The notes under the pieces were generated by a model. The model made no database searches, had not been told where the DNA came from, and saw only the letters and a list, made by a program, of their open reading frames with translations. Positions 17,691 through 62,869 of a stretch of DNA of 64,000 bases are shown here, in pieces; position 1 is the stretch's first letter; each line of letters starts with the position of its first letter. The position numbers were made by a program, and so were the translations under genes. Source of the DNA: Psammoneis japonica (lineage: Eukaryota); the NCBI GenBank assembly GCA_008632985.1, contig QPGO01000167.1, forward strand, positions 62,001 to 126,000, written 5' to 3'.

Positions 17691-17724
17691 CCTGTCACTT
17701 GACGGCCCCAATCATGGGGGAGTG

Positions 17725-18156: not shown

Positions 18157-18162
18157 GACGAG

Positions 18163-21877: not shown

Positions 21878-22252
21878 TGTCAGCCTGTCTGTGCCTGTCG
21901 TGTGATGGACAGACTGGATGCGGATGATGGCCAGACCATTTAGATGGACGAGCAGATCTCTCTGAGATCTGCTTCTCACTTTCTCATCTACCAGCACTCA
22001 TGTTGTCACAGTCCTGGTGCTTTGGGGAGTCTTTCACACCTCTGTCACTGTCGACCTTCTTCGGCACTCTGTCAGGTTGTGGCCATGTGCTGTGCCACAG
22101 ACCTCTGCGCCAAGCTTTCTGTCTCGATTCATTTGTTTTGTGAGCCGATCGAGCGAGCCTCATCGTCTGATCCAACAACTTTTTGTCTCGCTTTCCCGGC
22201 ATTTTTCACGACCGTAGAAACACACCAGATTTCTGCGCGTGCATGACCAAAA

Positions 22253-24366
22253 ATGGCTCCACCCACTAAAACCATGGCGTCTCCCGACCTTGCAAAAGCC
22301 GCTCCTGCGTCAATTGCAGAGATCTGCTGTGAATTTGAGGCACATGCAACGACACCACATCCACATCAGTGCCTGAGTGCGGTTCGCACAGACTCCACAA
22401 CTGATCTCGATCGATTTTTTGACGATCCAGAGCATGTGCAACCCAAGAACGATTTTGCGGACATGCTTCGCGATTGTTTCATCCATGAAGCATTTCCACC
22501 TTACACAGCTGATCCCATGGATGTAGAATCAATCAAGACGATTGTGGATCAAGCCCTGTTCAGACTTCTTGACCCTCAAAGGCCTCATCCAGTCCGCCTG
22601 ACAACTCTGATCTCATCAAAGATGATCAAGACGAATCTTCAGAACGGCGAACAATCTCTGTTCATCATCACATCTGCCCAACACATGCATGTTGATCCAG
22701 ACATGACATGGAACTGTCGCAATTGGAACGAGTTCTCTCTTGCACCCCACCAGAAGAACCAGCAGCCTCCGTCTTCTTCTCAGAAACCCACAGGACCTGC
22801 TGCATTGACTGTGACTGACTTGGTGACTGCACTCAACACATGCACGTCGAGCCATGCTCCGCCTTCTACAGCTTCTGCTGAGACATCTGGAAGCACCACA
22901 TCTTCCGCAACATCGAAATACCTCTTCAATCCGAACACACTTCCCACAGACGTTCGTGCACGCTACGACCACAAAGAAGACGGAAAAGTTGCTCTTCAGA
23001 GCTCTCTCGTCCCTTGCGACCATGGATTCCGTCACTGTGTTGATGCATCCGATCGCATCATCCTCAACGATGGCACCCTTTTCATCATGAGCTCGACTCC
23101 TGATCAGAAAATGCTGTTCAGAGAACCTCCTGCATGTCATGACGACTCTCCCCCTGGGATGCGAGCATGGCACCAAAATCTCCAACGTCATGCCTTTGAT
23201 TCAGGTTGCTGCATGCATCCCCTGTGGCGTTTTGCTGAGGATCACGGTGGTGAGAAGGGTTTTGAGATCGGCAACGGCAAGGATGATGACTTACCTCAAC
23301 GCATGTACGTCCACTGCAAGGAAGCTCAGAGTTCTCTCCACAAAATCCTCTCCAAGTCGGACATGTTCCCCAAGAATGGCAAGCATCATCGGATTGTTGC
23401 ATCGTGCCACGGCAACGGATGCAAGGCTCTAAAGCAGATCATCTACGAGAATCACCCTGCCTTTGATCATGATGCTGCTGGACTTGTTGATTCCATCCCA
23501 TCCAAGGCAATCAATCTTCAACGGACTGCCACATGTTCTTCAATGATTTCCCACAGCTGCGTGCCTGCATTTTTGACACGGACTCTACGTTGAACGATCC
23601 ACGGGAGATGACTGTCTTTGTCAAGAACACCAAGTGCTCCAAGTTCTTGTCACATGCTGCCAGAGATGAACGGAAGTCTCCAGCCATGCAGAAGAAGCAC
23701 ACGGATGCACAGATTGTCAAGACTCTCTCTGATTTCCTCCGCCAACCGGATGGTCCATCCCTTCCCACTCGCATGACGCAATCCAACCCATGCCGTGCAT
23801 GGAATCGAGCAGATGCTTCTACACGACGCACACCTGCCAATGTCAACTCCACCCAGATCCCTGAGACACCCCTCCGTGAACCAGTTGATGACTCTGCCAC
23901 TGAAGATCCTGGTGCAGAATCTCCACCTCCGGATGCCTTTGACACTCTTTGCGACGAATTGCACGAACTCGAGATCCCATCTGCGGACGAAGATCGAATC
24001 CTTCACCATGCACACTCGGCTTCAGTCTGTGGGCTGAAAGTCACTCCGCATGAAGCCTCCAAGAAACCATGTCTTGTCTGCTCCGGAGAGCATTTGTTTG
24101 ATGACTGTCCAGTCCTGAAGAATGGCCCGTACATCAAGGGCTTCCACATCCGTTTTTGTCAATTCTTAAAATGGGAAGCAGCTGTGCGTGCTTCTGAGTT
24201 CCAAGGACCCCAAGGTTTGCTCCCACCTCATCATGACAATCCTGAAAATCCGCCTCCGTCTGGTGCTCAGCCCTCGGATTTTCAATCGGGCCGTCGCAGC
24301 TGGTTTCGGATCTCCGACGCTGCCCGTCATCTCCTCACCGAGACAAGACCAATGTCAGCGGGATGA
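22253..24366 (+). pseudogene. Copia 1 gag-like region
   Basis: Two overlapping ORFs (frameshift ~23500); zinc knuckle CLVCSGEHLFDDCP. Confidence 0.75.
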
Positions 24367-27300
24367 CCTTGAAAGAGGGACTAACCGTCTCGTCATCTGC
24401 CGCTGCAGTGCCTCTTTCCTCACAGATTGATGTGGATGCCACCCCTTCCACCTCCACGAAGACATCTTTTGACACCAACACGTTGCCCGACGATGACCCT
24501 GCTCCTCAAGAAGCCTCCGTTGATGCTGCTCATGTTCCGGATCCTTTGGAACAGGGGAGGGAAGACCCAGAAACACCGGTTTTTGAGGAACATGTTGATC
24601 TCACCTGTGGTGATGTGGCTGTTGAAGACGGTTTTGCTGCTGTCAATTCTGTTCGTGTTGCTCCGATCGATCCACACCAGGCAAATCACTCACCTGAGCC
24701 GGAACTGCTGCGATCCACTTGTTCTGTCAATGGGGTAAACTTTGCTCCGAATGAACGTTGTGCTCAGTTGGATGCAGGTGCCGATGTTGCGTGTGCAGGC
24801 GAGCGTGACCTCCTCCATCGCTGCCAAGACTTCACTCCATCCCATCCCTGTCCCCTTGCCGTCAACCTGGCCCTTGGCCACCAAGCTGTCCCAGTTGGAT
24901 TCGGCTGTCTTCGCATCCCTGCAGAGAACTCTGATGGCTGTGTTGAGGTCCGTGCATGCCACCACCCACAGATCCAATCTACGTTGGTTGATGAGTGACT
25001 CCTCCTTCGTCAAAATGGTTCTCGTCACACAGATTGCAATGTCGATTGCATTCTCAAGTTCCATGATCTCGGCACCTGCAAGTTTGTTGCACGACACCGA
25101 TTGCGCAAGAGTCAGGATGTTGTCATTCATGGAAAATTGATCAACGGAAAATGTTTCACTCACCCTCTCATTCTCCCGGAATCTAACGACGAACTGGATG
25201 CATCTGTCGAGCGCCTCAAGACTGCTGATCCTTCTTTTGCCGATGAGTGTGAAGCAGTCTCTGCGCACATGATTGAGACTTGTCGCACCCACCAACATGA
25301 AGCTCTTCGTGATGAACGCAAGTTGATCCCCCGTGTCTGTCAAGACATTCCTTTCGAGAAGCATGCTGAGAAGAACATTCCTGTCCAGTCTCTCAAGGCT
25401 GACACGGAACGTCTTTTATGGCATCAGCGACTTGGTCATCCGAGTGATCACTGCCTTTGTCATGCCCATGAACATGTTGATGGCGTCCCCAAGTTTGCCC
25501 ACGGAACTTCTCCTCTCAACACTTGTCCCACATGCACATGAGCCAAGCAGACGAAGGAACCTGCCGGTCCGAACACTGCTCTTGCTGCCACCCAACCATG
25601 CCAAGGCCTTGCGATTGATTTTTCCTTCTCTGGCCTGCGCTCCAAGAACTCGGAGCACACCAAGGACTGTGTTGGATTGAATGGCGAGACTTGTTGGATT
25701 GCTGTTTATGATCATAAAACGAAGCGTCTCCATGGTGCGACTTGTGTCTCCAAGGCAACCCCTTTGAATTGGATTCGCCACTTTCTGGAAGAGCACTCAC
25801 CAAAATGTCCAGACAAACATGCATTTGTGGATCAAGGAGGTGAATCACATCAGAACCCAGAAGTTGCCGACTCTTCGAGGATGACTTTCATTGTGCAATT
25901 CGTCCTGCGGGAAAAGATGCTTCAAATCAGAGTGGCCCAGTGGAATGCAGTCATTTGTCTGTTGCCAATGCCATCCGGGCGATGCCAATCGGTGCCGATT
26001 TGCCCATCAAATTCTGGCCCCATGCTTTTCATCATTTCATTCGAATCAACAACGCTTTGCCATCCCGCGGACAACCTGCTGCTCCGATTGCTCTCGCTGC
26101 TGGTCGGAAGGATGATTTCAAGAACATTCGTGCGTTTGGTTGTCGAGTGTGGGTGCGTGCGTCGAATCACCGCCCAGCGAAATTTCGGTCTGTCTCTCGC
26201 AAGGGAACATTCTCAGGCTGTCTTCCGGACACTGCCAAGAACATTCTTTGGTGTGACACTGAGACATCGCGTGTCAAGCTTGCCAAGCACATTCGCTGCG
26301 ATGAGGGCATGAATGATCTTCCCCACGACTCTCTTCCGCCGAATGTGGTTCACTTGGAACGCACTCAAGATGGCAAGGCTTTGCCTGCCAAGACTGAAGA
26401 AACCACGATGGATGAGCTCCACTTTCATGGGAATCCCTTTGCCAAGACCATCAAGCATGTGATGAAGGGACCATTTGCTGATCCCACATTTGGACTTTCC
26501 TTGGCTGCGGACAATCTCTGTCGGCGAGTGTTTGTCTCTGACACCAAGCGTGGTTCTCCTGCTGCGCGTCTTTTCTCCTCTTCGAAGGCCACCCGTGACA
26601 AGATCAAGGGTGTGTGCATCGCATCGATTGATGATCATCCTGTGTCACGGCAGAGGATGCCATCAAACGTTTTCAGCAAGTCTGTGATTCTGGCAAGACT
26701 CATTTTGAAATTGAATTCGCGCCGGAACGTCGCCTGGACTCTCAAGCCCTACAACGTGCTCTGATGGAACACAACACACATGCACCGAGTCCTGATCCTG
26801 ATGATGAGCATGTTCCGGAAATCACCAACGCCGATGTACGTGCTGTTGCTGCCATCCGCCTGCCCGACATTGATTTCTCCGAAATGGATGATGACGATGT
26901 CCCTCCACCATTCTTTGTTGATTGTGACAATGGTGTGGTCAATGTCTGTGCTGTCTCATCTCACGCTGTTGCTCCAGAGGAACAAGCCTTGGGTGCTTTC
27001 ACCCGCCATTGCCTCAAGAAGTTGGACACGTGGCCTGAATGGCATGCAGGTGAATTCAAACAACTTGACCAGTTCCATGAGTTGGGGATGTTTGGTGCAC
27101 CGATTAAACGACCCAAGGATGCTGTCGCACTTCGTCCACATTGGCAATGTGACCTCAAGCATGATGGCACATGGCACTCTCGACAGTGCTGTGATGGATC
27201 TCCCCGTGCTGCGTCGACACTACATCGACTCTGCTCGACGCACTCATCCTGTGTTGAGCAGCCTGTCCAATGCATGTTTTTTGCCCTTGCTGCGACCATG

Positions 27301-28667
27301 AGCCATCCTGTCTTTGGCAGGGATGCTCGTGATGCCTGTGCACACTCTCCACGACCGTCACACCCCGTGTGTGTTGCCACAGACAAGGCATGTGCAACCT
27401 GGTGCAAGGCTCGGTTTGGTGTTGACTTGGACAGGAGCATGGCACTCCCGATGCAACATGCACTTCAAGGACACCCAGAAGCCGGCGTGCTCTGGGAGAT
27501 GCACATCAACGGCATTTTGTCTGATGTGAATCTGCTTTTTCGCAACACTGCTCATGACAAATGCACCCACTCTGCTGCTTTTGAAGGACACAAGATCTTG
27601 CTCCTCCGTCAGGTTGATGATTTCTCTCTCGCTTGTCCTGAAGAGTCCACTGTGATCAAGATCTGTGACAAGATTGGCAAAGCTCTCCAATTGGAATCGG
27701 AAACCTCTCCGCCGTTCAAGCATCTTGGCATGATTGACGAATTCAATGGTGCAGACATTCATCAATGCAATGACTCCATTGGCATTGCTGTTCACAGCTG
27801 TGCAGATCGGGTTTGTGCCTCGCATGGTTGGTCGACACCGACGGACGAGGAACTTGACGATGACTGCAAGGCTGCGCCACTGCCTGTTGACTCTGTTCGC
27901 GAACTGTGTGATGCCATTGGCCCAGCTGAAGGAACCCCGGAGCATGCGGAACTGCAACAAGCTGCTGGTTTCGGCCACCGAACTCTTCTTGGCGAATTGT
28001 TGCATGCGTGCGTTGTCTGTCGACTGGACACTGGGTGTGCTGTCACTGCTCTATCCAAGTTCTCGACCTGTCCTGCTGTGGTTCACTGTGACGCGCTCAA
28101 AGGAATGTGCAAGTGCCTTCGACGCACTGGACATTGGGAGTTGAACTGCAGGAAGCCCACCCGAGACTCCAAACTGCCCACCTGCCCCTTCGAACGTCTC
28201 ACTCCGGACCCGACCTTACCGTCGTTCCCTTGTCCTGCGTGTGATCATCAACTCGTTGCTTTCTTGGATGCTGCTTGTGGCAATGACCTCCGCAACCATC
28301 ATTCTACGACTGGCTGTGCTTGCATGCCAGCTGGTGCTGCTGTGTCTTTTCAGTGCAAGACCCAATCGGTGGCCGCTGCGAGCTCTACGGAAGCTGAATT
28401 TTGTGCTGCTGGAACTGCTGCCAAGCATGTCCCATGCCTTCGTCACGTTCTACAAGACCCAGGCTTCCCTCAGACGGAGCCCACCCGACTGAGCGATCCC
28501 GTCACATTGAGACTCAGTTTTTTGTGATCCAAGAATGGAAGGAAGCGGGCAAGATTGTCGCGAGACATGTTCCTGGCATTGTCAACCCTGGCGATGACCT
28601 TGCCAAGGCCTTTGGCTGGGTGCCACACGCTCGCCACGCTCGACGCATGATGGGACACCACTGTTGA
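24363..28667 (+). pseudogene. Copia 1 pol
   Basis: QLDAGA protease, LWHQRLGH..C..C, VDQGGE integrase, ALQGHPEAG and RQVDDF in RT, SSTEAEF, RSRHIETQFF, NPGDDLAK RNase H. Confidence 0.9.
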
Positions 28668-29084
28668 TGTTTTTTTCCGCGGTGGCCTCCCTGCTGCGCA
28701 TTGCCCTCTTGTTTGATGGTGCATTGGGCATGGACACTTCTCGTGTCCTGTGTCTGGTCTCTCTATTTTTTCCTCACATCATCCCCATTCTTTGGTTTGA
28801 TCTGCGCTGTTCTCTGTGTTGAGACATTGCAGATCAGGGGAGGGTGTCAGCCCATCTGTGCCTGTCGCATGATGGACAGACTGGATGCGGATGATGGCTG
28901 GACCATTTGGATAGACGAGCAGATCTCTCTGAGATCTGCTTCTCACTTTCTCATCTGCTGGCACTCGTGTTGTCACAGTCCTGGCACTTCAGGGAGTCTT
29001 TCACACCTCTGTCACTGTCGACCTTCGGCATTCTGTCAAAAACCACAATTGTGAAGCATGGGGTCGGCTGTCGGTGCTTGGCCC

Positions 29085-37998: not shown

Positions 37999-39121
37999 AT
38001 GCCGTTTGCACAAGTTGGAGGTGTCGGTGATGCCGCTGGTCCACAGGTGAGTCGATGTCGTGCATTGTCACAGAGCGACGGTCGCCATGATGGTGTGTTG
38101 TCGCAACATGCCATTTCTGCGAATGACTTTGAATATATTTGTTATTCAATCTTGAATATTTATATTAAATCGACACTTTTTCGCTCACAAAATCGCTCTC
38201 TTGGATTCTCACTCTCGTGCCCTCTCCCCGATACTCGTACTTGCAGGATTGGTTCAATGCATTGCCCATAATTACACGGTATTGGTTTGGACTGACATGT
38301 GCCTTGACATTATGTGGTAATTTTGGAATCGTTTCCATTTACAAACTGCTTTTTGATTGGTCGTCGATTCGAGAGAACTTTGAGATTTGGCGCTTGGCGT
38401 CGCCGTTCCTGTATGCGGGACCCTTCAAGTTTGAGACTGTGATTAAGGTATATATGCTTGTGAGCTTTAGCAAGCAGTATGAAGCGGGGGGTCCCTTCAA
38501 CACGGGTGCGGGTGGCGGAACGGCGGATTATGCCTTTTCGCTCCTATTTGCCATGGCTGGCACCCTGCTTTCGTACCCGCTGCTTGTTGGCATATTTAGT
38601 ATCCCTCCCATATTCTCCAATACATTGATTTCGTTTGTCCTTTATGTGAGTAAATGAATTATGATTATCCTCGAAGCATGTCGACTGTTGTGGTTTTCTC
38701 ACACACTCAAACAATCGAACTGATTTTCTGCTTTCAGTGCTGGTCCAAGAGAAATCCGACCGCCAATGCCAATATATGGGGAATACCAGTAAAGGCGATT
38801 TACTTTCCTTTTGCTTACTTGGGTCTAAATGTCGTCATGGGCAACCCTTACTTGGATATGCTTCACGGAATGGCGATTGCGCACGTGTTTTACTTTTTGG
38901 TGGACGTACTTCCTGCTGTTCAAGGAAAGACAATTTTGCACACTCCACGCTTTTTGATTGATTTCTTTGGAGTGGGAGAATACACGGCACCTCCGCCTCC
39001 GGTCAATCCCGCATTTCAGCCGAACCGTGGTGGCATACATCAGGCCGGTGGTCAACAGCAACAACCACGGGGTGGTGGACACAACTGGGGTGGAGGAGGA
39101 CAACGGCTTGGGACACAATGA
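37999..39121 (+). CDS. DER1: Derlin (Der1-like ERAD membrane protein), exons 37999-38046, 38247-38645, 38738-39121
   Basis: LPIITRYWF, FEIWRL (WR motif), WSKRNP, G...AHVFYFL, C-terminal HNWGGGGQRLG (SHP box); GT-AG introns keep frame. Confidence 0.92.
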
Positions 39122-39319
39122 GTCGAATAGCATTATTTGGCAATCTAGTGCTAGCGTAGATTTTAATGAGGCTTTGAAAGTGATTAGATTGAACTTTTGA
39201 AGCTTTGTTGGATGCTAATTAGTTTCAGTGAGCGACTGTTTGTTCCACCCGACACATTTGACTATTTTGCAGTAGTAGATTTAAGGAGAATGTGGCCGTT
39301 CAATGCTGGTATCGCTCCA

Positions 39320-41032
39320 TTACTTGTAAGGCTTTGTAATAAATCCTTCCATTGCCAGCTCATGAAGGTGCTCGATCAACTCAGCATGCTTTGGATCATC
39401 ATACAAGTTGTTCTCTTCTCCTTTGTCGTTGACCAAGTCGAACAATTCATTCTTGCTCTCTGCGTACCAGCAATATTTCCATCGGCCTTTACGAACCATG
39501 CGCGCCCCTCCGTGACTATGCCTATAATTCTCACTGATGGCATGCCGCTTCCAACCATCCTCTTCTCCGCGAATTATAGGCATGAGCGTCTTTCCGTCTA
39601 CTTCTTCTGGAATTGGAATGTTGCACAATTCGCACAAAGTTGGGAAGATATCCATTAGCTGGACTGGAGACCATACTGTAGTGTTGACCTCAATCTCTCC
39701 CGGGTATGAAAGGATGAGAGGAACTTTTGCTGAGTCTTCATAGAATGCGTTCTTGAACCAGACACCACGCTCCCCAGCTAGTTCCCCGTGATCCGATAGA
39801 TAAACAATAATTGTGTCGTTACGCAAACCTTTTTGTTCGAGCTTTCTAATCATCCACCCAAAAAGCGCGTCAACATAGGTGATCTGCCCAAAGTATACGG
39901 CGCGGGCAGTCTTGATTTGCTCGTTTGTCATGTTTCCCCACCCGTACTGTTCACGCTCCACCTTTTTTGCGTGGGGAAGGTTCTCAATCATCTGGGGGGT
40001 AACACGTGGTAAATCAGTCACCTCCTTGTACATGTTGTAGTATTCCTCAAGAACGATGAAGGGAAAATGCGGGTTGACGAGCGACAACCCGAGAAGAAAA
40101 GGTTTGCTGCCATCGTATTTGTCAAGCCAGCGCCTTGCTTCTTTTGTAACAACCGCATCCAATATGGGTTTGATTTCATCACCGAACGGCTGTGCCTGTA
40201 TATTGGTTGGCATTTTATTGTGAGTTCATGTGTCATATGGTTGGAATCTTCAAGGCCATGGAAAAAGAAGCACACACCTGCATTGGTTGATTTCCAACCT
40301 TGTTTTTGAGAAGCGTGTATTCCTTGACTCTCTTGAAATGAATATCTTTAAACACTTTATCATTCTCCTTGTCGAAGCCAAGATTGGAATTTGACGTCCC
40401 CCAATGCTCCTTACCCAGCCAGGTAGCAGAATACCCCGCCTAGTGGAATTGGAGGATGCCAATGCATATTGAGAAATTTTATATGGGACTAATGCACACA
40501 AGATACAGCCACAAAGCTCAAACTCTTACCTCGGCAAAGGATCTCGCCAAAGTAACTGGAGTGTCTCGCAACCCATCTATTTTGTGGAATTTGTTGTCAA
40601 ATGCGCCAAGCTTTGAAGGGACTTGTCCTGTTACAAGTGAAGCACTAGTTTTCATCAAGCAAGAAAGACTCATAAGCACAACATAACGGTCTAGAGATAT
40701 CACCCATGCATTAAAACGCGATCTGACGATACTCACCGTGATGGCACACACACGGGATTCTGACAGTAGGCATTTCTGAACACCACGCCCGAGTCAGCAA
40801 GGGCGTCAAACGTAGGGGTTTTGACATGAGGATGCCCAGTGCGTCCCATGAGTCTTCCTGAGTGCTCGTCAGACATGAGAATCAGGACGTTTTTCTTCTT
40901 CTCGGTTTCTTGTGAAGCTGCGAATGAGATCGACGTTAGAAAGACAACAGCCATCGTCAAGAGTGTCAATCCTCTTGAGCAAAGACTAAGCTTCGCATGA
41001 TCGTTTCTCTTTGCATGAAAAGAGAAACGCAT
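39320..41032 (-). CDS. Sulfatase (choline-sulfatase-like), copy 1, intron-containing
   Basis: [21 protein letters not shown] (CxPxR), LGKEHW, NPHFP, YLSDHGE, KVPLI, ELFDL..D..E..NL. Confidence 0.9.
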
Positions 41033-41459
41033 TGTGTATGTCACCTATTAGGAACCTATTTGTACGGTACAAGTACCCGGTGCGAACGTTTTATGAGTTA
41101 TGAGCGTGTTTGTGTCTCATTGTGTCATACTGTACAGTACCGTACAGTACCAACAACTTGAAACTGTCTCTACTACTGTACGTACTGTACGAAGCTACTC
41201 TACTCTACTAGTAGTAAGTAGGTATAGAGAGAGTAGAGAGGACAACAACTGAAACTGTCTCTTATTAGAGGACAAATTTTAATTAACACTACTCAACATT
41301 TATCGTTTTGGAATCGGTTATTGAAAAAATAATAAATAATGTCGCGACAGCCTCAAAATAGAGTCATGCATTCATTGTTACAAGCATCAGAGTTCACTGT
41401 GCTCCACTGGCTTAGAGGGCGTACCTCTGTTGATTGGAATAAAAAATTTCCTTCATTTT

Positions 41460-42610
41460 TCTAATGCTGAAGTGGCACACTGTAAAAAAGTGCCCCCGGA
41501 TGGAAAGAGGTTGCAACGGCCGGTGGCAGTGGAGAGTTTTGGGGGAGCGAGAATGTGGTGTCTTGAGATTTCATGAAGTTGCCGTGCAACTGCAATGCTG
41601 CTTCCAAGGTTGATGGAAATGTGCACCTGGGGCAGTGGTTGTGGAAAATGTGTGTTGTGCACCAGCCAGGTCAGATGCACTGAATGTTGCCAGACATGAT
41701 GCACTCAACAACAATGTGAGAAAGCAGCGTCGGCACACACAGGCCTGTTCCAGCTCCAGGTGCTCCGCGCGGGTTCGATTCCCATCATTTGGAAAATTTG
41801 TGCATTCAGCGCAATTAACTTTTTCCAAATTCGTTTTTTGCCAAATCGAAGGGCAGGTGTACACTTTGCATGTATTTTTGGGTGTACACTCACCTTTCGA
41901 TTTTCGAAACGATCAAAATTGAAGGAGTCAATTGCGCTAAACTGCGCAGAAAATCGGCCTCTCGAGTGATGAAAAGCAGAGCACCTGGAGCTGGAACAGG
42001 CCCACACCACAGTGCCTGACTTGATGCTTGGCCAGCCATTGGCAAGGAATGGTGCTGCCAATGGCCCAAAGTGATTTTGGCAGCCACACCTGGCTGCATG
42101 TGCACATTCATGTCAGCAAATGGCAGTGTTAAAGCAGCCCACCTCTGAATCACATAAACCCATTGTTTGGTGCAGCAAAGCACCTTGTTGTGAACAAGAA
42201 AAAAGTGGCTCTCTTAAAGTGACCATCAGAACCTGCCTTCTTGAGCAGCTCTGGCACTGTTGTCACTCTTTCAGCCCCAGCCATGACAGAGAGCCTTCAA
42301 CTTGCAGAGCTCACCAAATGAAAAGGAAAAAGTGACTTCTGGGTTTGTGGCAGCACCAGACCCAGCTCTTCAAGTCTGGTCTGCTCCAGATCTGCAATTT
42401 CAACAAAACCTTTGTGTGGCAATGCAAACCCAGACCCCCCTCCAGTGTCATTGTGTCTCCATTGATGGACAAGGCTGTGTTTCCTGTTGGGACTGCTGAT
42501 TGCCTTCTGCCATGGCTGGTGGCACAGAAGTCAAAAAGAAAGAGCACGTTGAGCTGTCATGAGTGTGATGGGGAAAGTGTGTCACTTTCGTGTTGCACCC
42601 AACAATGGAC
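41460..42610. repeat. TpA-depleted block D between the tandem duplicates
   Basis: TA largely absent; contains a ~260-bp imperfect palindrome at 41742-42002. Confidence 0.65.
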
Positions 42611-42619
42611 ACAATGGCC

Positions 42620-43135
42620 AATGATTCTTTTGTTCTTTGTGTGAGCAAATGAATTGTGATTGTCCTTGAAGCATGTTGACTGTTGTGGTTTTCTGAGACA
42701 CACGGTCTTCTCGCAAATCGCAAGAAACGAGCTGTTCTTCTGTTTTCAGTGCTGGTCCCAGAGAAATCAGACCACCAATGCCAATGTGTGGGGAACACCA
42801 GTCAAGGCCATTTACTTTCCTTTTGCTTGTTTGGGTCTGAATGTCATCATGGGCAACCCTTGCTTGGACATGCTCTTCGCGGAATGGTGATTGCGCACGT
42901 GTTTTACTTTTTGGTGGACGTTCTTCCTGCGGTTCAAGGAAAGACAATTTTGCACACTCCACGCTTTTTGATTGATTTCTTTGGAGTGGGAGAATACACG
43001 GCACCTCCGCCTCCGGTCAATCCCGCATTTCAGCCGAACCGTGGTGGCATACATCAGGCCGGTGGTCAACAGAAACAGCCACGGGGTGGTGGACACAACT
43101 GGGGTGGAGGAGGACAACGGCTTGGGACACAATGA
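42620..43135 (+). pseudogene. 5'-truncated derlin duplicate
   Basis: Aligns to 38625-39121; lacks exon 1 and most of exon 2; frameshift ~42875; first ~270 bp TA-mutated. Confidence 0.9.
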
Positions 43136-43308
43136 GTAGAAAAGCATTATTTGTCAATCCAGTGCTAGCGTAGATTTTAACGAGGCTTTGAAAGTGATTA
43201 GATTGAACTTTTAAAGCTTTTTTGGATGGCACACAGTTTTGTTCCATGCGACACATTTGACTACACCTTGCGGCAGTAGATTTAGTGAGGTGGCCGGTCA
43301 ATGCTGGT

Positions 43309-45033
43309 TTAGTTCCATTTCCTGTAAGGCTTTGTAAGATATCCTTCCATTGCCAGCTCATGAAGGTGCTCGATCAAACTGGCATGTTGTGGATCATCAT
43401 ACAAGTTGTTCAGTTCTGCTGGGTCGTTTCTCAAGTCGAACAATTCATTTTTGCTCTCTGCGTACCAGCAATATTTCCATTGGCCTTTACGAACCATGCG
43501 CGCCCCTCCGTGACTATGCCTGTAATTCTCGCTGATGGCATGCCGCTTCCAACCATCCTCATCTCCGCGAATTATGGGCATGAGCGACTTTCCGTCTACT
43601 TCTTTTGGAATTGGAATGTTGCATAGGTCACACAAAGTCGGGAAGATATCCATTAACTGGACTGGAGACCATACTGTAGTATTGGCTTCAATCTCTCCCG
43701 GGTACGAAATGATAAGAGGCACTTTTGCTGAGTCTTCATAGAATGCATTCTTGTACCAGACACCACGCTCCCCAGCTAGTTCCCCGTGATCTGATAGATA
43801 AACAATAATTGTGTCGTTGCGCAAACCTTTTTGTTCGAGCTTATCAAGCATCCACGCAAAAAGTGTGTCAGCATAGGTGATCTGCCCGAAGTACACGGCG
43901 CGGGCAATCTTGATTTGGTCATCTGTCATGTTTCCCCATCCGTATCTTCGCGCTCCAACTTTTGTGCAAGGGGAAGGTTCTCAATCATCTCGGGGGTAAC
44001 CCGTGGTAAATCAATCACGTCCTTGTACATGTCATAGTATTGCTCAAGGACGATGAAGGGAAAATGCGGGTTGACGAGCGACAACCCGAGAAGAAAAGGT
44101 TTGCTCCCGTCGTATTTGTCAAGCCAGCGCCGTGCTTCCATTGTAACAACGGCATCCAATATGGGTTTGATTTCATCACCGAACGGCTGTGCCTGTATTG
44201 GTTGGCATTTTATTGTGAGTTCATATATCATATGGTTGGAATCAACAAGCCATGGAAAAAGAAGCACACACCTGCATTGGTTGATTTCCAACCTTCCTTT
44301 TGAGAAGCGTGTATTCCTTGACTCTCTTGAGATGAATATCTTTAAACACTCTATCATTCTCCTTGTCGAAGCCAAGGTTGGTATTTGACGTCCCCCAATG
44401 CTCCTTACCCAGCCAGGTAGCAGAATACCCCGCCTGGTGGAATTGGAGGATGTCAATGCACCATGAGAAGTTATGTGTGCGGATAATGTACACAAGATAC
44501 AAGATACGGCAACTGAGCTCGAACTCTTACCTCGGCGAAGGATCTCGCCAAAGTAACTGGAGTGTCTCGTAACCCATCTACTTTGTGGAAGGTGTTGACA
44601 AACGCGCCTAGCTTTGAAGGAAGTTGTCCTGTCACAAGTGAAGCGCTAGTATTCACCGAGCAAGAAAAACTCGTAAGCACAGCATCATGGTCTAGAGAGA
44701 GCACCCACGTATTGAAGCGCGATCTGGCGATACTCACCGTGATGGCACACACACGGGGTTCTGACAGTAGGCATTTCTGAATACCACGCCCGAGTCAGCA
44801 AGGGCATCAAACGTAGGGGTTTTGACAAGAGGATGTCCAACGCATCCCATGAGTCTTCCTGAGTGCTCGTCAGACATGAGAATCAGAACGTTTTTCTTTT
44901 TCTCGGTTTCTTGTGGAGCTGCGGATGCGGTCGACGCTAGAATGACAACAACCAGAATCAAGATTGTCATTCCTCTTGAGAAAAGACTAAGCTTCTCATG
45001 ATCGTATCTCTTTGCATGAAAAGCGAAACACAT
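43309..45033 (-). CDS. Sulfatase, copy 2 (tandem paralog), frameshift near 43945
   Basis: Colinear with copy 1, same motifs and intron positions; ERE|YGWGNMT broken by a 1-nt indel. Confidence 0.85.
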
Positions 45034-45374
45034 GTGGATGTCAACCAACAAAGCAATACTCTAGGGAAAGGCCGAACGAACGATTTATGAGCGTGTTGCG
45101 TGTTATGTTTGGCTTCGATGCTGATGATTCCGATTAGTGTTTGTCTCGTCTCATGTGTCTACAGATTCAAGACTTTTAATTAATTATTTATTCATAAATA
45201 TATATCAAACAAAAAGTCGTTAAATGACACGAAAGCCACTAACTCTAAGTCATTCTATTTATCTCTAAGTATCAGAGTTCACAATCCTCTAGGGCGTGGA
45301 TGACCTAAATTTTTTTACGTCCTGTTTCAAATGTGACACAAAAATGCATTTGTAGACAATGTCTGCATGCTGTA

Positions 45375-46466: not shown

Positions 46467-49400
46467 TGACAGGATTTGAACAGGATTTGGGTGCGCACGA
46501 AATGTCGCGCGCTGTTTGGTTTGCCGCGCACAGTTTTGTGTGCTTTAGTTCCGTGCGTTCGCGCGCGATGCAGTTTGCTTTCGAGCCACAAGGCTCACAA
46601 GAACAATGACAGCAGCCCGATTGTGCCGACTTGCACGTCTTTCGGCTCCTGCAACGGTCTCTGAGTGGAGACTCATCTGCTGTTTAGACAGCAGCAAGGA
46701 GTTGTTGTTTGAATTCTTGCCATTTGCCTTCAATTTCTGTCAGGTTGACAGTCTTGCTCATTGTCAACCCATTGAGCAACCGCCGTCGTCGTCGTTGATT
46801 TGCCGACGATGCCATTTCAATTCTGCGTGGATCTCCGCACATGTTCTGCATGCATCAGCAAGTCCACGCGCATTCAATGCCAGGCACTGGCAGGAAGTTA
46901 ACGTCACCATCAAGTCTCCTTGCCGCTGGACATCTGGATTGATTGTGCTGCCTTTCATCGCTGAAGACATGCACTCAACGGTCATGTCCAAGTCTGTCCT
47001 TGATCCTCATCCCTTGATGTGCCCATTCATCGGTTAACGGTCAAGAACCCTGCATGTTCAAGGATCTTCATCGCTGAAGACATGCACATGCACACATCTT
47101 CACTGCCAAGAACTTGCACCCACTCTTCGGACTGCAGTTTTGCCGCCACTCTACAAGCACACCGAGTCCATTGCACCTGATCTGCCCAAGACTGCTGGTG
47201 CTCTGCAATTCTGCTGGGTCCACAAGGACAACTGTGAGAGCAAGCAGCCGTGATTGCAGCCCACGTTGGGGCGAGGGTGTTTTCCCACATTTGTTCGTTC
47301 GTCCACAGTGCCTGACGCCTGCGTCAACTGGCCAGCCTGATCGGGAAATCCAACCGACATAAAATGAGAACGGTTCGGGGGTCTTGTCCACCTCTGGTCA
47401 GCTTGCCTGCAGGGGCTTGCAACCCGCTGCTCCGCTCGCAAGCAACCCAAAGCGCCACTGGCTGCGGGCTCGGATGTGCCAGCACAACTCTACGGACCGG
47501 ATGGGAAGTTCAGCACTTGACAACGAACGGGACAGCACAGCCCGGCGACTTCTGATTTCAAGGCAGTTCAAGATTTCAAGTCAAGTCCATTTCAAGTCAA
47601 GTCTGTTCTCACCCAAGTTTCAAGTCCACCCTTGCTTCCCAACAAGAATTGCTTGTCCTGACACCACTTTTGTCTGCCATGGTTCTCACTCGTCAGCAAC
47701 AAACCGATGGTTTCGAGCACGTTGTTGGAACCGTGCTTGCCCAAGGTGCTGGGAGCCCTCTTCGTTTGGCTTTGGCCCAAGACGGCACGGACTCGCATCA
47801 AGAACTGTTCACGTTCATGCCGTCCCAAATCGACTTGCTTGAGCACGACAACAGCACCAATGTGATCCCTTTGCCCCGCGGTTATGAGAACATGTCAGCA
47901 GCTCTGGTCAGTCTGTGCATTGTCAAAGCACATGAAGGTCTTGACGTTGCCAATGACTCCTCATTGTTCACGCATGACGAGTTCCTTGCCTGCCGCCTCA
48001 GCCCCGACTGCATGTCTTCTGTGTCCGTCGGCAGCTCACCCCTCGCACCTCCGCATGTCACCAACCCGACCAAGGCACGCGACCCGGTGCGAGACTTCAA
48101 GCGAGGCATCAAGCGTGACCCCACCGCTTTCACGGCTCTCAAATCTGACAAGCAGTGGCACACTTGGCACACCTCACTTGTGGCACAAGCCCGTGCCCAA
48201 GACATCGAGTGCATTCTAGACTCGTCGTACAAACCGACCAGCCCCGAAGACAAACTGCTCTTTGCTGAACAGCAAAAGCACATGTTCGCCATCTTCGAAT
48301 GCATCCTTCTCACCGACAAGGGCAAGGCTCTCATTCGCGAAAATGTGGGGTCTTCTGATGCCCAGACCGTCTGCCGCGCCTTGTCTGAGCATGCGCTCAC
48401 CTCCACCCGCGCATCTGTCGAGTCCTCCACCTTGCTCACGTGCCTTGCCACCGCACGTCTTGGTGATGGCACTTGGAAAGGTCTGACCCACGGGTTCATC
48501 CTTCATTGGCAAGATCAGTTGCACAAGTGCGAGGCACTCATCCCGGCCAGCGACCACTTCTCTGAAGGACAGAAGCGCGTCATGCTCGAGAATGCCGCAC
48601 ACCCTGTCGAGGAACTCCGTGCTGTCAAGAACCAAGCTGATCAGCATCACACGCAGAGTGGCAAGAGCCTCACACACGATCAATGCTGTGGCTTGCTCCT
48701 CTCCGTGGTGGCTCAATGCGACAGTGTGTTTCAACCCAAGACAACACCTCGAGCTCCCCGACGTGCCATGTGCGCACACAACGTCCACTCCGAGGAACCG
48801 TCCGACGATGTGTTCTGCAACATTGACAGCGACATTGACGTCCTTCAGGCCAATGCTGCCCACACCCGTGGTCCCAGCCTCACCGGTGACCAATGGAAAC
48901 GTCTCCCTCCCGACCACCAACGGATTTGGGATTCGTTGCCCCATTCCTCCAAGGCGATCATCCTCGAGCATTCTCGTCTGCCTCCCCGCGACCTGCGAGC
49001 CAGCAACTGCCATGAGTCCATTACGGCCAACCTTCATGACCAATGCCTTGGGAGTGACGGTGATGTCAACTTGTCCAACACGACTCCTGCTGACTCTGGT
49101 GACTCCGCTCCAAATGTGGGTGCCACTTCAGATGATCCCATCCTGGCGCACCTCACCAAGCGCAAGCCACTGCCACCCGGTGATCTGCAATGTCTGTTGT
49201 CTCCTAACCAAGCCCCCAACGCCAGTCGACCAGGGCCATCCGCCGCTCCCTCTACCCCGCCAGCTCCTGCCGATGACATGGAACTTAACGGCCGCACTTG
49301 CCGCCGCATTGACAACCACAATGTCATTCACTCTGCCTCTGCTCATCGCTCCACACGCGCTGGTGCTCCAGTCGATCGTGGGGCCAACGGCGGCATTGCT

Positions 49401-52400
49401 GGTGACGACGTTCGCGTCATTGCATGCACCTCTTGCCAAGTCGACGTTCAGGGCATTGACGACCATCAATTGGTGGACATCCCCATTGTCACCGCTGGTG
49501 CCATCATCGAGACCCAGCATGGTCCCGTCATCGCCATCCTCCATCAGCACGCATGCACGGGCAAGGGCAAGACCATTCATTCCTGCGGCCAGCTCGAATG
49601 GCACAAACAGGATGTCAACGATTGCTCTGTCAAGGTGCCCAATGGCTTGCAACGCATTGCCACTCCTGATGGCTGTGTCATCCCCATTGACATCAAGGGC
49701 GGCCTGCCTTGTGTTGCCATGCGACCTCACACTGACGCCGAATGGGACACCCTGCCCCATGTCATCCTCACCGGTGATGACACATGGGATCCTCCCGTCC
49801 TCGATCACTCTGTCACTGACAACGACCAGTGGTGCGACGCGATCTCTGACCCACAGGACGATCCCACTGCCAACCCATTTGACGAATGCGGCAACTGTCG
49901 TCATCGTGTTGTTGTCAACGAGACCATCATGTCCGCTTCCTTGTCTGCCGATCACGCATCCGCCCTCGATGATCACCTCATTCCGAACGACGACGTGTTC
50001 TGCGAGTGTCATCTGCACGCGATTGACCCCAAGGACGACGACGTTCCGCCCCCGGAGCGCACTGTGCAGCCCAAGGACCCCCCCTTCAAGTCTCTTTGGC
50101 CTTGCTTTGGCTTCCCACCTGCCGATGCGGTCCGTCATGCTTTTGACTGCACCACGCAGTGCGTCCGCATGCCCGCCGGTGCACACCTTAGGAAGGCCTG
50201 CAAATCACCCAACCCCGCCCTTAATGTGCACCGCCACAACGAGCCTGTCACCACTGACACCGTTTGTGCCGACACCCCGGCCGTCGACTCTGGTTGCACC
50301 AGCGCCCAACTGTTTGTTGGCACCGAGTCTACCGTCACTGACGTCTGCAGCACCAAGACGGACAAAGAGTTTGTCAACACACTCGAGGATCAGATCCGTG
50401 AGCGTGGTGCCCCATCCAAACTCATCAGCGACCGTGCTCAAGTTGAGATCAGCAACAAGGTGCTCGGGATTCTACGAGCCCTCTTCATCTCCAGCTGGCA
50501 AAGTGAGCCTCACCAGCAACACCAAAACTTTGCCGAGCGTCGACACCAGACCGTGAAGCGCATGGCGAACACTGTCATGGATCGTTTCGGAGACCACGAA
50601 TGGAAAGTGAACGGCAATCCTGAGCTCACTAAGTTCGTCTGCTCTGTCAACAACGACGAATGCGAGGAAGTCCTTGCCTGCAACGACATCATGAATCACA
50701 TTGAGCAAGAAGACGAAGACACTGCTGTTTGGAAATTTCGACGCATCGTGTCACACGAAGGACCTCTGAAGCCTCATGACCCAACCTGGAAAGGCTCAAG
50801 CTACAACATCATGCTTGAATGGGAAAGTGGGGAGATCACGTCCGAGCCTCTTGCCATCATCGCCAAGGACGACCCCGTCACCTGCACCATCCATGCACGA
50901 GAGAACGGACTTCTCGACACTGATGGCTGGAAGCGGTTCTGCACCATCGCGAGGCGCCAGAAGAATCCATTTTGCATGGCCAACCAAGCCAAGCTTCACT
51001 CCTTCCGCACTGCACCTCGCCACAAGTGCGGATGCGAAGTTCCCCGGAACTGCAAACACACCATGTCACCAGACGAACGCAACGGCAACCGCAAATGGGG
51101 AGACGCAACTAATCTCAAGATGGACCAACTCGGGGAATGCGAAGTCTTCCATGACTGCGGGCCCTTCGAGTCTTCCACTCCTCCTGTGGGACACAAGAAG
51201 ATCCGAGTGCACCTGGTGCACGACGTGAAACACGACGGTCGCCACAAGGCATGACTCGTAGCCGATGGGCACCTCACGGATGTGCCCATCGACAGTGTCT
51301 GCTCTGGAGCAGTCTCCCTCCGTGGCCTTCTGCTGATGATTTTCCTGGCCGAACTCAACGAGTTGGAGACATGGGCCACCGACATTGGCAATGCCTGCCT
51401 TGAAGCCACCACCAAGGAGAAGCTCTACATTGCAGCCGGACCCAAATTTGGCAAACTCAAAGGACACATCCTTGTCATCCACAAAGCCCTGTGTGGACTG
51501 CGCAGCTCCGGTCTCCGCTGGCACGAGTGCTTCGCCGACTGCCTGCGAGCTGAAGGCTTCTTCCCCTGCCGCGCCGAACCCGACATTTGGATGCGCAGGA
51601 ACGACGACCACTGTGAACACATTGCCGTTCATGTGGATGACCTCGCCATTGCTGTGAAGGACCCTCAATCTTTCGTCGATGCTCTCACGGAAAAGTGCAA
51701 GTTCAAGCTCAAGGGCACGGGACCCATTGAGTTCCATCTGGGTTGCGACTTTTCCCGGGATCCCGATGGCCTCACCGGATGCTCTGTCATGGGAATGCTC
51801 CACTTCCTCAACAAATTCCCGGCTGATTGGTTCTCTAAGAAGCAAGCCACTGTGGAGACTGTGACCTGCGGGTCTGAATTTGTTGCCGCAAGGACTTGTG
51901 TCGAGCAGATCATCGACCTGCGCATCACCCTGCGCTGCCTTGGCGTCCCTGTCCGTAATGTCAGTTGCATGTTCGGTGACAACAAGTCGGTTGTAGACAG
52001 TGCCACCATCCCGCACTCCAAGTTACACAAGCGACACACCGCACTGTCGTTCCACCGTGTGCGTGAGGCAATTGCCTCTGGTCACCTTGAGCTCCACTTC
52101 ATCGAAGGCTCCCGCAACCCTGCTGACATTCTCAGCAAGCATTGGGGTCACTCCCAAATCTGGGACCTTCTCCGCCCCCTCATGTTCTGGAACTTCATTC
52201 CATCCGAAGTCAAATCTGTTTCTGTGGCTCCTCAAGCAAACTGGGGAGTGACAGGATTTGGACAGGATTCAGGTGCGCGCAAAATGTCGCGCGCTGTTTA
52301 GTTTGCCGCGCACAGTTTTGTGTGCTTTAGTTCCACGCGTTCGCGCGCGATGTAGTTTGCTTTCGAGCCACAAGGCTCACAAGAACAACAACAGCAGCCC

Positions 52401-52524
52401 GATTGTGCTGACTTGCACGTCTTTCGGCTCCTGTGATGGTCTCTGAGCGGAGACTCATCTGCTGTTTAGACAGCAGCAAGGAGTTGTTGTTTGAATTCTT
52501 GCCATTTGCCTTCAATTTCTGTCA
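46467..52524 (+). mobile_element. Ty1/Copia LTR retrotransposon 2 (diatom CoDi-like), internally deleted
   Basis: 276-bp LTRs 46467-46742 and 52249-52524 (TGACAG..CTGTCA), TSD CTCGC/CTTGC, PPT ggggag. Confidence 0.95.
47679..52248 (+). pseudogene. Copia 2 gag-pol
   Basis: FKRGIKRD, VDRGANGG protease, LISDRAQVE and SEPHQQHQNFAERR integrase, KHDGRHKA*LVA, HVDD (expected YVDD), CGSEFVAAR, GDNKSVV, NPADILSK; deletions near 50590 and 51770. Confidence 0.92.
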
Positions 52525-60877: not shown

Positions 60878-62869
60878 GGCACGTTCCCACCCCGATAATT
60901 TCGGCCGTAAAATAAATATAATTTCGTTCTACACAAAATTCCTGTAGAAACTCTCGTACAAGAAAAATCGCACGTCTGTTTTCCATCCGCCAATTTACAG
61001 CCGAAATTATCAGCAAATTACGACGACAGGTGTCGGTCGTCGTAAATTCTCTCCCGTAAATATAATTTTCACGGTAAATTCGGCGTTTTGGGAGCTCGAA
61101 CGTGCCACGTCACACAAGCCGCCCATTTTTTTTCTTTCTCCGCTCCGATCGCACAACAACCATGATGGCTGCTGCCATGAACGGACCCGTTCATACCCCC
61201 ACTCGGGCAAAAAATCGAACCACTCAGTGGCTCGCAACTTGCGCAGCGTAAAACTCGCAACTGACACAATGAAGTGGCACCCACACAGATGCAACCTTTT
61301 GACAGAGGCAAAAAGCCATTGTTGTCAATGCATTGTGTTGTTAGCGGCCACTCGTGTGTGGAGCTCGGTTGCCGTCAAATCACCGTCATGGTCATTGTCG
61401 GTGATTTTCTCACCCCGCAGAAACAACCGCAGGGCAGCACCAGAAAAAAATGTCGAACCATTGAGCGGTTCGCCACGTAGACAAGCACCGGGAGCCCCGC
61501 AGAATTGGTGAACCATGAGGTGGTTCGGGAGGACGAGCGTAGAAATGTGCGTGGCAATTTGCACCAGAGGGTCGAATGCAAAATTGAACCAGAAAAATGA
61601 GGCTCACGATGAACAAGACGGCAGCAGTGCGGAGAAGTTTAAGAACATGGCAAACCACTGAAACAAAGCACACATGTTGTCAAACAGATGTTGCTGCATC
61701 GACTGATGCAATGTTGTTGCAGACATCTCATTGTCTTTTACACTTTCACCCATCGTCTGTCGGTTCATTTTTGGCTTGCCGCGAGCCACTTGATGGTTCG
61801 GGGCAGGAATCGCGCATTCGTGATTTCGCGCGGCAAACCACTGCATGGTTCGCGCTGGGAGTGGGGACACACGAACGACCGTCCTGTCTACGAAGGCAAG
61901 AATGTAGAGACAGGTCAATGAGACTACGCTCGATGCGATCAAGCTGTCACAATTTTGATTTTTTGTTGTTGTTGTGGCTTGTGACGACAGTGTCGACCAA
62001 CGGCATTTTTGATGTCTTCGTTTCTCTTGTTCAGATTTCATTGGGATTCTTCACAAACCATGCGTCTGCAGACTTGAGGCTGAATCCTCGCAGCAACACA
62101 TTATGATCTGATGTCACATTGAGGTGGTTCTTTGGTGTGTGCTCAAGGTCACTTGATTGACGGCCAAGAGTCAAGAGTGCAACATTTTGGTCACTTCAAC
62201 AACAACAGGAAGGCTTGTTGTGACAGAATGTGACTGTGAAGAAGGCTGTGTGCTCTTGTTTCATCAATCTTGTCGGAAGTTAGGACAATGATGCCGGTGG
62301 GGGTCAACGTTTTGTGCAACATCGTCGGCATTGTGCCTCACAGTGCCTCACTCTGCTGTCTGGAGGCCTTCTCTGCGACTTGCTCTTTGTCACTTTGCTC
62401 TTTGTTGCTTTGCTCTTTGAAATGGATTTGGGCCAATGGCAAACCGCAAGAGTTGACAATGGTGCCTTTTAGTGCCTCACATTCTGTAGAAATTATGTCC
62501 AGCAGTTTTGCGTGCTGCAGTCTCACTGCGCGCCATTGTTTCGTGCATCTTTCTGATCTCTCTGCAACTCTTGCCAGTGGATTGAATGTTGGGCACATTT
62601 CTTCTGACCTTCACTGGTGTCACCCTGAGTCTTGGGTTGCCGCAGAGCAATCGCAAAATGGACAACGATTGTCACTGACAATGTTGTGGTGTCTCTCTAG
62701 CTGGCAGCTCTAGCCAGTGCTGTGGCGTGTGGCGTCCTCACCGAGCTCGACATGAGATTTTGATCTTTTTTGCCGATCGAATTCGTTCCCAGCCTGATGC
62801 CCGTAAATGCGCAAATTTGGCCAAATTGCATTCATTTTACGGCCGAAATTGTCAGGGTGGGAACGTGCC
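60878..62869. mobile_element. ~2-kb TIR element, possibly PIF/Harbinger-like, no intact transposase
   Basis: 47-bp inverted termini ggcacgttcccacccYgaYaatttcggccgtaaaat..; TCA on both flanks as 3-bp TSD candidate. Confidence 0.65.

Follow-up and report, generated by a model that had tools for sequence, protein, structure and literature searches.

This study concerns a stretch of 64,000 bases of DNA from Psammoneis japonica, hereafter the window, whose positions serve for all coordinates given below. Within it, a truncated second copy of a derlin gene adjoins a relic, block D, that is poor in the dinucleotides TA and CG, and in the part of this copy next to the relic most of the ancestral TA sites have become TG or CA. 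These conversions are local, they run from TA to TG or CA, and in the retrotransposons of the window they were made in DNA after insertion. The explanation that we favour, and that we hold to be likely, is that a TpA-specific process acting on integrated DNA, and aimed by position, struck the derlin fragment beside block D.

The features on which the argument turns are the following.

38623..41043, plus strand: copy A, with the end of a derlin exon, an intron, the intact last exon (38738-39121) and a convergent minus-strand sulfatase gene (blastn, MAFFT); Pfam domains DER1, Sulfatase and SGSH_C
42619..45043, plus strand: copy B, a truncated derlin pseudogene fragment plus a second sulfatase copy (blastn, MAFFT)
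42619..42884, plus strand: hypermutated part of copy B, with 11 of 13 ancestral TA now TG or CA and 4 of 9 CG now TG or CA (orthologues as outgroup)
42885..43139, plus strand: low-divergence patch of copy B, 97.6% identical to A 38871-39125, holding the rest of the derlin reading frame, with no change to TG or CA at its 4 TA
41491..42618, no strand: block D, a relic with little TA and CG, whose depth is that of a single copy except in a nested high-copy element (hidden Markov model (HMM) segmentation, TA and CG maps)
41742..42003, no strand: insertion resembling a miniature inverted-repeat transposable element (MITE) within block D, with inverted arms at 41737-41768 and 41976-42007 and an interior normal in TA and CG

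Conversion of TA sites in the derlin fragment

Comparing the window with itself by blastn gives one direct duplicate, A 38623-41043 versus B 42619-45043, at 89.2% identity; aligned with MAFFT, the two copies are 90.6% identical, with 226 mismatches in 2398 aligned columns. The first segment of this alignment, A 38623-38870 against B 42619-42884, has 36 mismatches in 248 aligned columns; it runs from the end of one exon through the intron 38646-38737 into the last derlin exon, of which it covers the first 130 bases. Contigs of one public sample (runs X1 and X2) were also aligned with 38000-46600, and one of run X2 looks spliced, as it omits 38646-38737 with GT..AG ends.

Copy A has 13 TA in this segment, and in copy B they appear as 8 TG, 3 CA, 1 TC and 1 TA. 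The last of these, shared with A, is the single TA that B has there, and the number of reverse changes is zero. In the remainder of the duplicate, 14 of the 88 TA of A are TG or CA in B, and 10 of the 86 TA of B are TG or CA in A. The difference between 11 of 13 and 14 of 88 is clear (Fisher p=1.6e-6); a sequence-only reading of this DNA had estimated about 11 of 13 sites, which turns out to be the exact count. That reading had also noticed a loss of CpG in the same segment, and this too is borne out: of A's 9 CG, 4 are TG or CA in B, 2 are kept and 3 are otherwise changed, against 13 of 92 turned into TG or CA in the remainder of the duplicate (p=0.04). The TG and CA outcomes are interspersed along the derlin fragment, which implies that both strands were struck, in independent events. 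Once the TA and CG sites are set aside, mismatches number about 20 in the 248 columns, roughly 8%, and the divergence of the remainder of the duplicate is 9.3%; the mutated part is thus as old as the rest.

The direction of change can be read from the orthologues. The closest derlin proteins have 48-73% identity, and those with named sources come from diatoms (Nitzschia inconspicua, Bacillariaceae, Epithemia), the other matches being marine records; on these similarities we treat the window as diatom nuclear DNA. Four codons of A that contain TA, namely ATA, ATA, TAC and TAC, stand at positions where 14 diatom orthologues carry I, I/F/V/M, Y (H in two of them) and Y; copy B has V, T, C and C at the same positions, and is frameshifted by a 2-bp insertion near 42873. 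Consequently, TA is the ancestral state and B is the changed copy: the intact copy gives the polarity, as the sequence-only reading had proposed, and the outgroup agrees with it.

Two side observations concern transcripts and reading frames here. A frame of 151 codons, 42680-43135, is open across the frameshift of copy B and would lead from intron-derived and mutated sequence into the conserved derlin C-terminus; it is a prediction only, and stops are scarce anyway in TA-free DNA. A contig of run X2 follows spliced derlin A up to 39199 and then continues as copy B 43214-43709, crossing over at a 31-base word common to A and B (39168-39198 = 43182-43212); most likely the assembler fused transcripts of derlin A and sulfatase B into a chimera. 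No RNA data set is listed as containing the stretch, and run X2 gives no cover over 39435-43165; we draw no conclusion from either.

The mutated derlin part abuts a block free of TA and CG, and nothing homologous to this block is found upstream of A; the link to block D that had been suggested stands. When block D is aligned with the sequence upstream of A, or spacer with spacer, with transitions tolerated, the scores are 36-47, within the shuffled null. A weak similarity links 42131-42287, within block D, to 52754-52916, next to the Copia element 46467-52524 described below (score 77 in a transition-tolerant alignment, against a null maximum of about 50).

Retrotransposons, relics and other host fragments

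The derlin fragment is a small part of the affected DNA. Cut into windows of 1 kb, the depleted DNA has TA at 0.02-0.15 of expectation and TG and CA at 1.5-2.0; elsewhere in the window, TA lies at about 0.4-1.0. A two-state HMM segmentation yields eight TA-depleted blocks that cover 32,394 of the 64,000 bases and hold 172 TA, versus 1394 in the other half. These blocks, and the three long terminal repeat (LTR) retrotransposons of the window, are as follows.

2864-4953, 7065-8762, 10731-14528, 17163-29079: depleted blocks (HMM segmentation)
41491-42987, 46274-53985, 58836-59604, 61079-63991: depleted blocks (HMM segmentation)
11850..18138, plus strand: Gypsy-type LTR retrotransposon, LTRs 11850-12264 and 17724-18138, TA-depleted save for an island at about 14.5-15.65 kb
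21878..29038, plus strand: Copia-type LTR retrotransposon, LTRs 21878-22074 and 28845-29038, AAAAC on both flanks, TA at 0.03-0.14 of expectation
46467..52524, plus strand: Copia-type LTR retrotransposon, LTRs 46467-46742 and 52249-52524, with 29 of 31 conserved tyrosines now cysteine or histidine

An element inserts with two identical LTRs, and any differences between them therefore date from later. Over the three pairs, 885 aligned bp contain 61 mismatch columns: 17 doubles in which TG in one LTR faces CA in the other, 9 cases of TA versus TG or CA, 13 of CG versus TG or CA, 5 other transitions and no transversion. Each LTR holds 5-30 CG and 1-5 TA; since CG is still abundant and TA nearly gone, the TG-versus-CA doubles derive from TA and not from CG. 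Each LTR thus resolved the same ancestral TA independently, and the change was made in DNA after insertion. Some 43 ancestral TA are changed in at least one LTR, and CG shows 13 differences with about 52 CG left per LTR set. Most TA of the LTRs were thus converted while ordinary mutation gave 5 transitions and no transversion, from which we estimate that TA conversion is a few hundred-fold faster per site. The target-site duplication of the Copia element 46467-52524 has also changed since insertion: it reads CTCGC on the left (46462-46466) and CTTGC on the right (52525-52529), a CG having become TG.

These pairs bear on the possibility that an ADAR-like A-to-I editing of retroelement RNA took place before reverse transcription. 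An A-to-G change with a 5' T does match the neighbour preference of ADAR. However, LTRs copied from one template should match at insertion, and we find 17 TG-versus-CA doubles; moreover, intron and exon DNA of derlin that never went through RNA is mutated, and changes of both strands are interspersed. We give this explanation almost no credence.

The effect on coding sequence was followed at positions with tyrosine in at least 80% of 8-12 related Copia polyproteins. In the Copia element 46467-52524, the 31 conserved tyrosines have become 19 cysteines (TGC or TGT), 10 histidines (CAC or CAT) and 1 phenylalanine, with 1 tyrosine left, and all other conserved residue types are retained at 76-100%. 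Among 23 conserved tyrosines of the Gypsy element, 6 are kept, 10 are cysteine and 6 are histidine; the kept ones, at 14856, 15060, 15198, 15231, 15519 and 15582, make up 6 of the first 7, and none of the 16 from 15681 to 17584 is kept.

The older pieces in the blocks are poor in CG as well, and in transition-tolerant alignment they are related to each other and to the Gypsy element: 3279-3593 matches 7607-7947, the reverse of 18883-19253, and Gypsy 13829-14255; 3653-4024 matches the reverse of 61434-61793; and 20455-20811 matches 61868-62222. Together with the LTR elements, this homology identifies the blocks as retrotransposons and their relics. The kinship of the old relics free of TA and CG (3236-4024, 7569-7967, 18827-19280, 20455-20811, 61434-62222) is missed by ordinary blastn. 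CG stands at 0.66-0.85 of expectation in the retrotransposon blocks and at 0.26-0.39 in the old relics; as the former keep most of their CG and the latter have lost both dinucleotides, the loss of TA is fast and the decay of CG slow.

Long open frames, in several frames and on both strands, fill 47556-51254 and its neighbourhood (e.g. 48216-49127 and 49128-50204 on the minus strand), an expected result of the loss of the stops TAA and TAG in TA-free DNA. One frame of 1232 codons has no Pfam match, though relatives align with it at 43% identity. Hypermutated relatives were not found among the best-scoring matches listed: all 244 retroelement proteins of at least 300 residues have at least 2.3% tyrosine.

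The loss depends on context. Comparing blocks with normal DNA, ATAT occurs 0 times versus 115, GTAT 1 versus 97, ATAC 2 versus 100 and ATAG 2 versus 73; the surviving TA of the blocks are enriched in the contexts CTAA, TTAA and CTAC.

Further fragments of host DNA were sought with a seed search in a purine/pyrimidine alphabet, followed by transition-tolerant alignment. Two lie inside relic blocks.

4583..4806, minus strand: fragment of a 7tm_3 receptor gene, with a 207-base progenitor at 29949-30155, inside block 2864-4953
62823..62878, minus strand: 56-bp copy of 60869-60924, inside block 61079-63991; its 5 TA have become 2 CA and 2 TG, with 1 kept

In the receptor fragment the 12 TA have become 7 TG, 2 CA and 2 AA, with 1 kept, and all 7 CG are lost. 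Conversion thus reaches 9 of 12 TA there and 4 of 5 in the 56-bp fragment, with no reverse change in either. Pooling these with the derlin fragment, 24 of 30 ancestral TA have become TG or CA, 3 are kept (in the contexts TTAC, TTAC and GTAA), 3 are otherwise changed, and reverse changes are again absent. A second receptor fragment, 5373-5577, lies about 400 bases outside the block and is affected only in part, with 4 of 8 TA converted versus 0 of 5 in reverse. The receptor fragment in the block is the oldest, at 71% identity: 48 of its 60 mismatches are transitions, and of its 29 changes of A to G or T to C, 20 lie outside TpA. Such changes often fall at ApT, a dinucleotide that is also low in the old blocks (0.65-0.8). 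This suggests that with time other A:T sites also go, as a secondary target, or that a second process acts.

With the three fragments in hand, two other origins of the derlin mutations can be weighed. The first is a duplication trigger, as in the repeat-induced point mutation (RIP) of fungi, the derlin fragment being mutated because it repeats the intact gene. Each of the three mutated host fragments does duplicate a gene of the window, but their progenitors are untouched; the other 2.1 kb of a duplicate that is 90% identical shows symmetric changes (14 of 88 versus 10 of 86); and RIP has the reverse chemistry, creating the TpA that is destroyed here. A RIP-like origin is thus extremely improbable, and the earlier statement that duplication alone is not the trigger is upheld.

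The second is transduplication, by which a mobile element of block D would have captured the derlin piece, the piece being then mutated as a part of the element. The other host fragments, of 207 and 56 bp, lie inside relic blocks and could be such captured pieces. However, the 250 mutated bases of derlin are collinear with the unmutated remainder and have the same divergence outside TA and CG (about 8% against 9.3%), so that capture would require the piece to have been inserted precisely in register. The depth of block D is that of a single copy (46-65), though contigs cannot count diverged copies. We consider transduplication improbable for the derlin piece.

The apparent stop near 42880

The last converted TA of copy B is at 42869 and the next TA, at 42905, is kept, as is an earlier one at 42813. 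The sequence-only reading took this to mean that mutation spreads about 270 bp into host-derived sequence and then stops, and that from about 42900 on the copy is near-identical, with its TA kept. This stop is confounded by a probable gene-conversion patch; and near-identity holds for B 42885-43139 only (97.6%), the rest being 86.6-90.7% identical. The adjoining sulfatase copy, said to be near-identical too, is not: it differs at 159 of 1708 columns (90.7% identity), and its exon has proportions of synonymous and nonsynonymous differences of pS 0.186 (34.5 of 185 sites) and pN 0.058. The lowest identity, 86.6%, is found between the patch and the sulfatase part.

Between the copies, the patch differs far less than the remainder of the duplicate does. 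Between A 38871-39125 and B 42885-43139 there are 6 mismatches in 255 columns, 4 of them between A 38875 and 39123, against 159 in 1708 for the sulfatase (P=8e-6). Its synonymous divergence, 3 of 60.7 sites (0.049), is likewise below the pS of 0.186 of the sulfatase exon (P=0.004). The right end of the patch is the derlin stop codon. Purifying selection is unlikely as the sole cause: the synonymous divergence is also low, and in B this exon lies downstream of a frameshift. As for its four TA, those at 42905, 42995 and 43050 are kept and one has become TT, so that none is converted where 3.4 conversions would be expected (P=6e-4).

Judging from these divergences, gene conversion probably overwrote this patch of B at a later time, with the intact derlin gene as donor. 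Such an event would have erased earlier TA conversions in the patch. Since the stop coincides with the left edge of the patch, 270 bp is no clean measure of reach, and we can only say that TA conversion reached at least 250 bp from block D. Beyond the patch, in 43140-43340, 4 of 15 TA have become CA versus 1 of 11 in reverse, and at one of the converted sites, 43230, the public read set retains TA; this hints weakly at a reach that was once longer.

One may suppose instead that the stop is an intrinsic limit of the process, some 250-270 bp from block D, or one to two nucleosomes. The absence of conversion at the four TA of the patch would follow directly, and sharp edges exist elsewhere: in the Gypsy element between 15582 and 15681, and at the 3' end of the Copia element 21878-29038, within 47 bp. 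However, an intrinsic limit leaves the low divergence of the patch unexplained, both overall and at synonymous sites, and the changes beyond the patch, one of them polymorphic, hint at a longer reach. It remains a serious but rather doubtful competitor of gene conversion.

A third possibility is that the switch near 42890 is an assembly join between two different loci. A DNA contig of run X1, 934 bases long, spans 41985-42918 with 2 differences from the window, and thus unites on one molecule block D with the 42619 junction, every converted site and the earliest TA kept beyond them. A contig of 3710 bases covers A (38000-38904) with no difference. Both of these left-side contigs end where A and B turn identical, and a merged contig at about 1.7-fold depth covers the patch; with B's letters at four sites and A's at six, we read this merged X1 contig as collapsed short-read paths of A and B, and set it aside as evidence. 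Hence the left junction is confirmed, and the pairing of left and right parts within B is not confirmed by these contigs. The window assembly itself crosses many high-copy elements, which suggests that long reads were used. With the kept TA at 42905 on the same contig as the converted sites, we think an artefact of assembly very improbable.

The contigs also bear on the age of the process. Between 41248 and 43230 the read set differs from the window at 11 places, 4 of them TA/CA and 4 CG/TG or CG/CA; among these are three extra changes of TA to CA, at 41284, 41290 and 41413, up to 200 bases to the left of block D. As 8 of the 11 differences are of the kinds TA/CA or CG/TG-CA, the process is probably recent or still running, and the hypermutation and the position of its edges seem to be still moving. 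Contig depth over block D is 46-60, and about 21000 in the bin 41731-42017, which holds the MITE-like element. A second MITE-like element, 45365-46275, has inverted ends at 45373-45421 and 46224-46272 and is normal in TA and CG; a part of the first, 41865-41902, resembles 45621-45658 in the second.

A process proposed to be aimed by position, and its known counterparts

The process is an A:T to G:C transition at the self-complementary TA step, turning TpA into TpG or CpA on DNA in place. It runs hundreds of times faster than background and has nearly saturated the three LTR retrotransposons and the older relics, about half of the window, with a slower decay of CpG to TpG or CpA alongside. On our explanation, the derlin fragment would have been hit through the adjoining relic and not through its own identity: as its progenitor and the remaining 2.1 kb of the duplicate are spared, targeting appears to follow position, not sequence identity or duplication. 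It is plausible that the targeted unit is a chromatin domain, silenced and seeded by retrotransposons, which would include the DNA at its edge; this would account for the three host fragments and for the sparing of their progenitors. The stop near 42880 is most likely the edge of the later gene-conversion tract from intact derlin. As to chemistry, a DNA adenine deaminase may turn adenine into hypoxanthine at TpA, as proposed, with an ADAT2-like candidate, for the alga Bigelowiella discussed below; more speculatively, a modified thymine might mispair with G. A self-complementary target that is struck on either strand fits both. Methylation of diatom transposons is known from Phaeodactylum, and the co-located decay of CpG would fit cytosine methylation of the same domain.

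Several observations weigh against this explanation. The argument from position draws on one junction with 13 sites and on two short fragments, and timing, element class or gene conversion also shape the pattern. To the right of the Copia end at 29038, TA is normal from 29085 on: 29044-29143 holds 7 and the next 100 bases 10, where 4.8 and 8.3 are expected. With normal TA within 47 bp of the 3' end of a Copia element, spreading into flanks is not general; this flank is the upstream region of the receptor gene, and selection or its chromatin state may protect it. The two MITE-like elements, in or beside depleted DNA, keep normal TA, and either were inserted after the last episode of mutation or are exempt. 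Inside the Gypsy element a stretch of about 1.1 kb (14500-15680) escaped, with a sharp edge; this may be the work of gene conversion, with an intact copy as donor, or may mark an edge intrinsic to the tract. Finally, none of the listed contigs spans the 150 bp over which A and B agree fully, and the link from left to right within B is therefore that of the window assembly alone.

The remaining content of the window can be described briefly. Between the three LTR retrotransposons lie genes for the derlin, the sulfatase, an ammonium transporter, the 7tm_3 receptor and a GH81 protein, with other gene fragments (Pfam). At 32260-32638 there are 379 consecutive N, either a gap or masked sequence, with AT-rich sequence on both sides. 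Clusters of motifs of the type GTAGAG/CTCTAC/GTACAG occur at 29114-29174, 37600-37804 and 41130-41238, upstream of the receptor, derlin and sulfatase A genes, and are probably promoter-region motifs of Psammoneis japonica. Two of these clusters lie at block edges and were considered as boundary elements; we dropped this idea, as a third one lies upstream of derlin, outside and apart from the blocks.

Such a process matters in several ways. The derlin piece and the two other host fragments are natural controls that give the direction of change without assumptions, and as identical sequence elsewhere is spared, they narrow the targeting to position or chromatin state. DNA of this kind loses nearly all of its TAA and TAG stops and its tyrosine codons, and so acquires long false reading frames. 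It also escapes ordinary repeat and domain searches: the homology of the relics is visible here only when transitions are tolerated.

How does this compare with known systems? As in fungal RIP, fast and dinucleotide-specific transitions ruin transposons within the genome; RIP, too, can leak into neighbouring DNA, as known from Leptosphaeria. RIP, however, turns CpA into TpA and thus raises TpA, which is lost here, and it needs duplication and mutates both copies, whereas here copy A remains intact and 2.1 kb of copy B escaped.

The deamination of 5-methylcytosine is matched by the changes of CG to TG or CA in the same blocks, where CG is at 0.26-0.85 of expectation; the loss of TA is beyond its reach, and in the LTRs runs far ahead of that of CG. 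The editing by ADAR and APOBEC in animals shares with our case clusters of deaminase-type transitions in retroelements. Unlike here, it acts on RNA or on intermediates of reverse transcription and leaves the two LTRs alike, whereas the LTRs of this window diverged after insertion and DNA other than retroelements was hit; besides, APOBEC changes C to T, and the changes here are from A to G.

The closest counterpart is found in the chlorarachniophyte Bigelowiella natans (Mettrop et al. 2026, bioRxiv preprint, 10.64898/2026.01.13.699255). Of 302 new single-nucleotide mutations in the nuclear genome of its mutation-accumulation lines, two integrated viral regions received 231. Almost all of these were changes of A to G or T to C, always at TpA; they arose in some lines only, with a rate per site and generation of about 6e-7. 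The genome has clusters of windows poor in TpA and rich in CpA and TpG, and reverse-transcriptase and DDE domains are enriched among its coding sequences with little TpA. The enzyme proposed there, and unproven, is an ADAT2-like DNA adenine deaminase; the Discussion of the preprint also states the 5' neighbour preference of ADAR (10.64898/2026.01.13.699255).

The likeness is close. In Bigelowiella the targets are integrated DNA of nucleocytoplasmic large DNA viruses (NCLDV) and of virophages; there as here the changes are almost only A-to-G and T-to-C at TpA, are confined to foreign or integrated DNA at a rate far above background, and couple a depletion of TpA to an enrichment of CpA and TpG in clustered windows. 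Its activity is not constitutive, appearing in some lines, and the unmutated young insertions in mutated blocks suggest episodes here as well. There are also differences. The host is a diatom, of the Stramenopiles, instead of a member of Rhizaria; LTR retrotransposons, and not viruses, are hit, with TA down to 0.02-0.15 of expectation versus 0.45 for the NCLDV region; CpG decays in the same blocks, and host-derived DNA at a block edge is hit too. ATA and TAT are nearly all lost while CTAA, TTAA and CTAC survive, a preference that is not reported in the sections of the preprint consulted. The Bigelowiella evidence includes de novo events, and ours is comparative only.

A full-text literature search gave the Bigelowiella preprint as the one close precedent and, as far as its listings show, no description of TpA-specific hypermutation in diatoms. 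What seems new here is its occurrence in a diatom and on LTR retrotransposons, the kind of process having already been described in Bigelowiella. It is a real possibility, which we put forward tentatively, that diatoms hold a DNA editing defence directed by position, acting fast after insertion and leaking a few hundred bases, and that this is the Bigelowiella pathway, old in the SAR (Stramenopiles, Alveolata and Rhizaria) lineage. If this is true, the sharp tract edges and the preference for ATA and TAT would be the signature of an enzyme that awaits discovery. Hypermutation directed at TpA has been on record only since 2026, from a single alga and from insertions of viruses, and the diatom would be a second major lineage; if so, the process would look like a general defence of the genome in marine protists, highly effective and with a chemistry opposite to that of fungal RIP.

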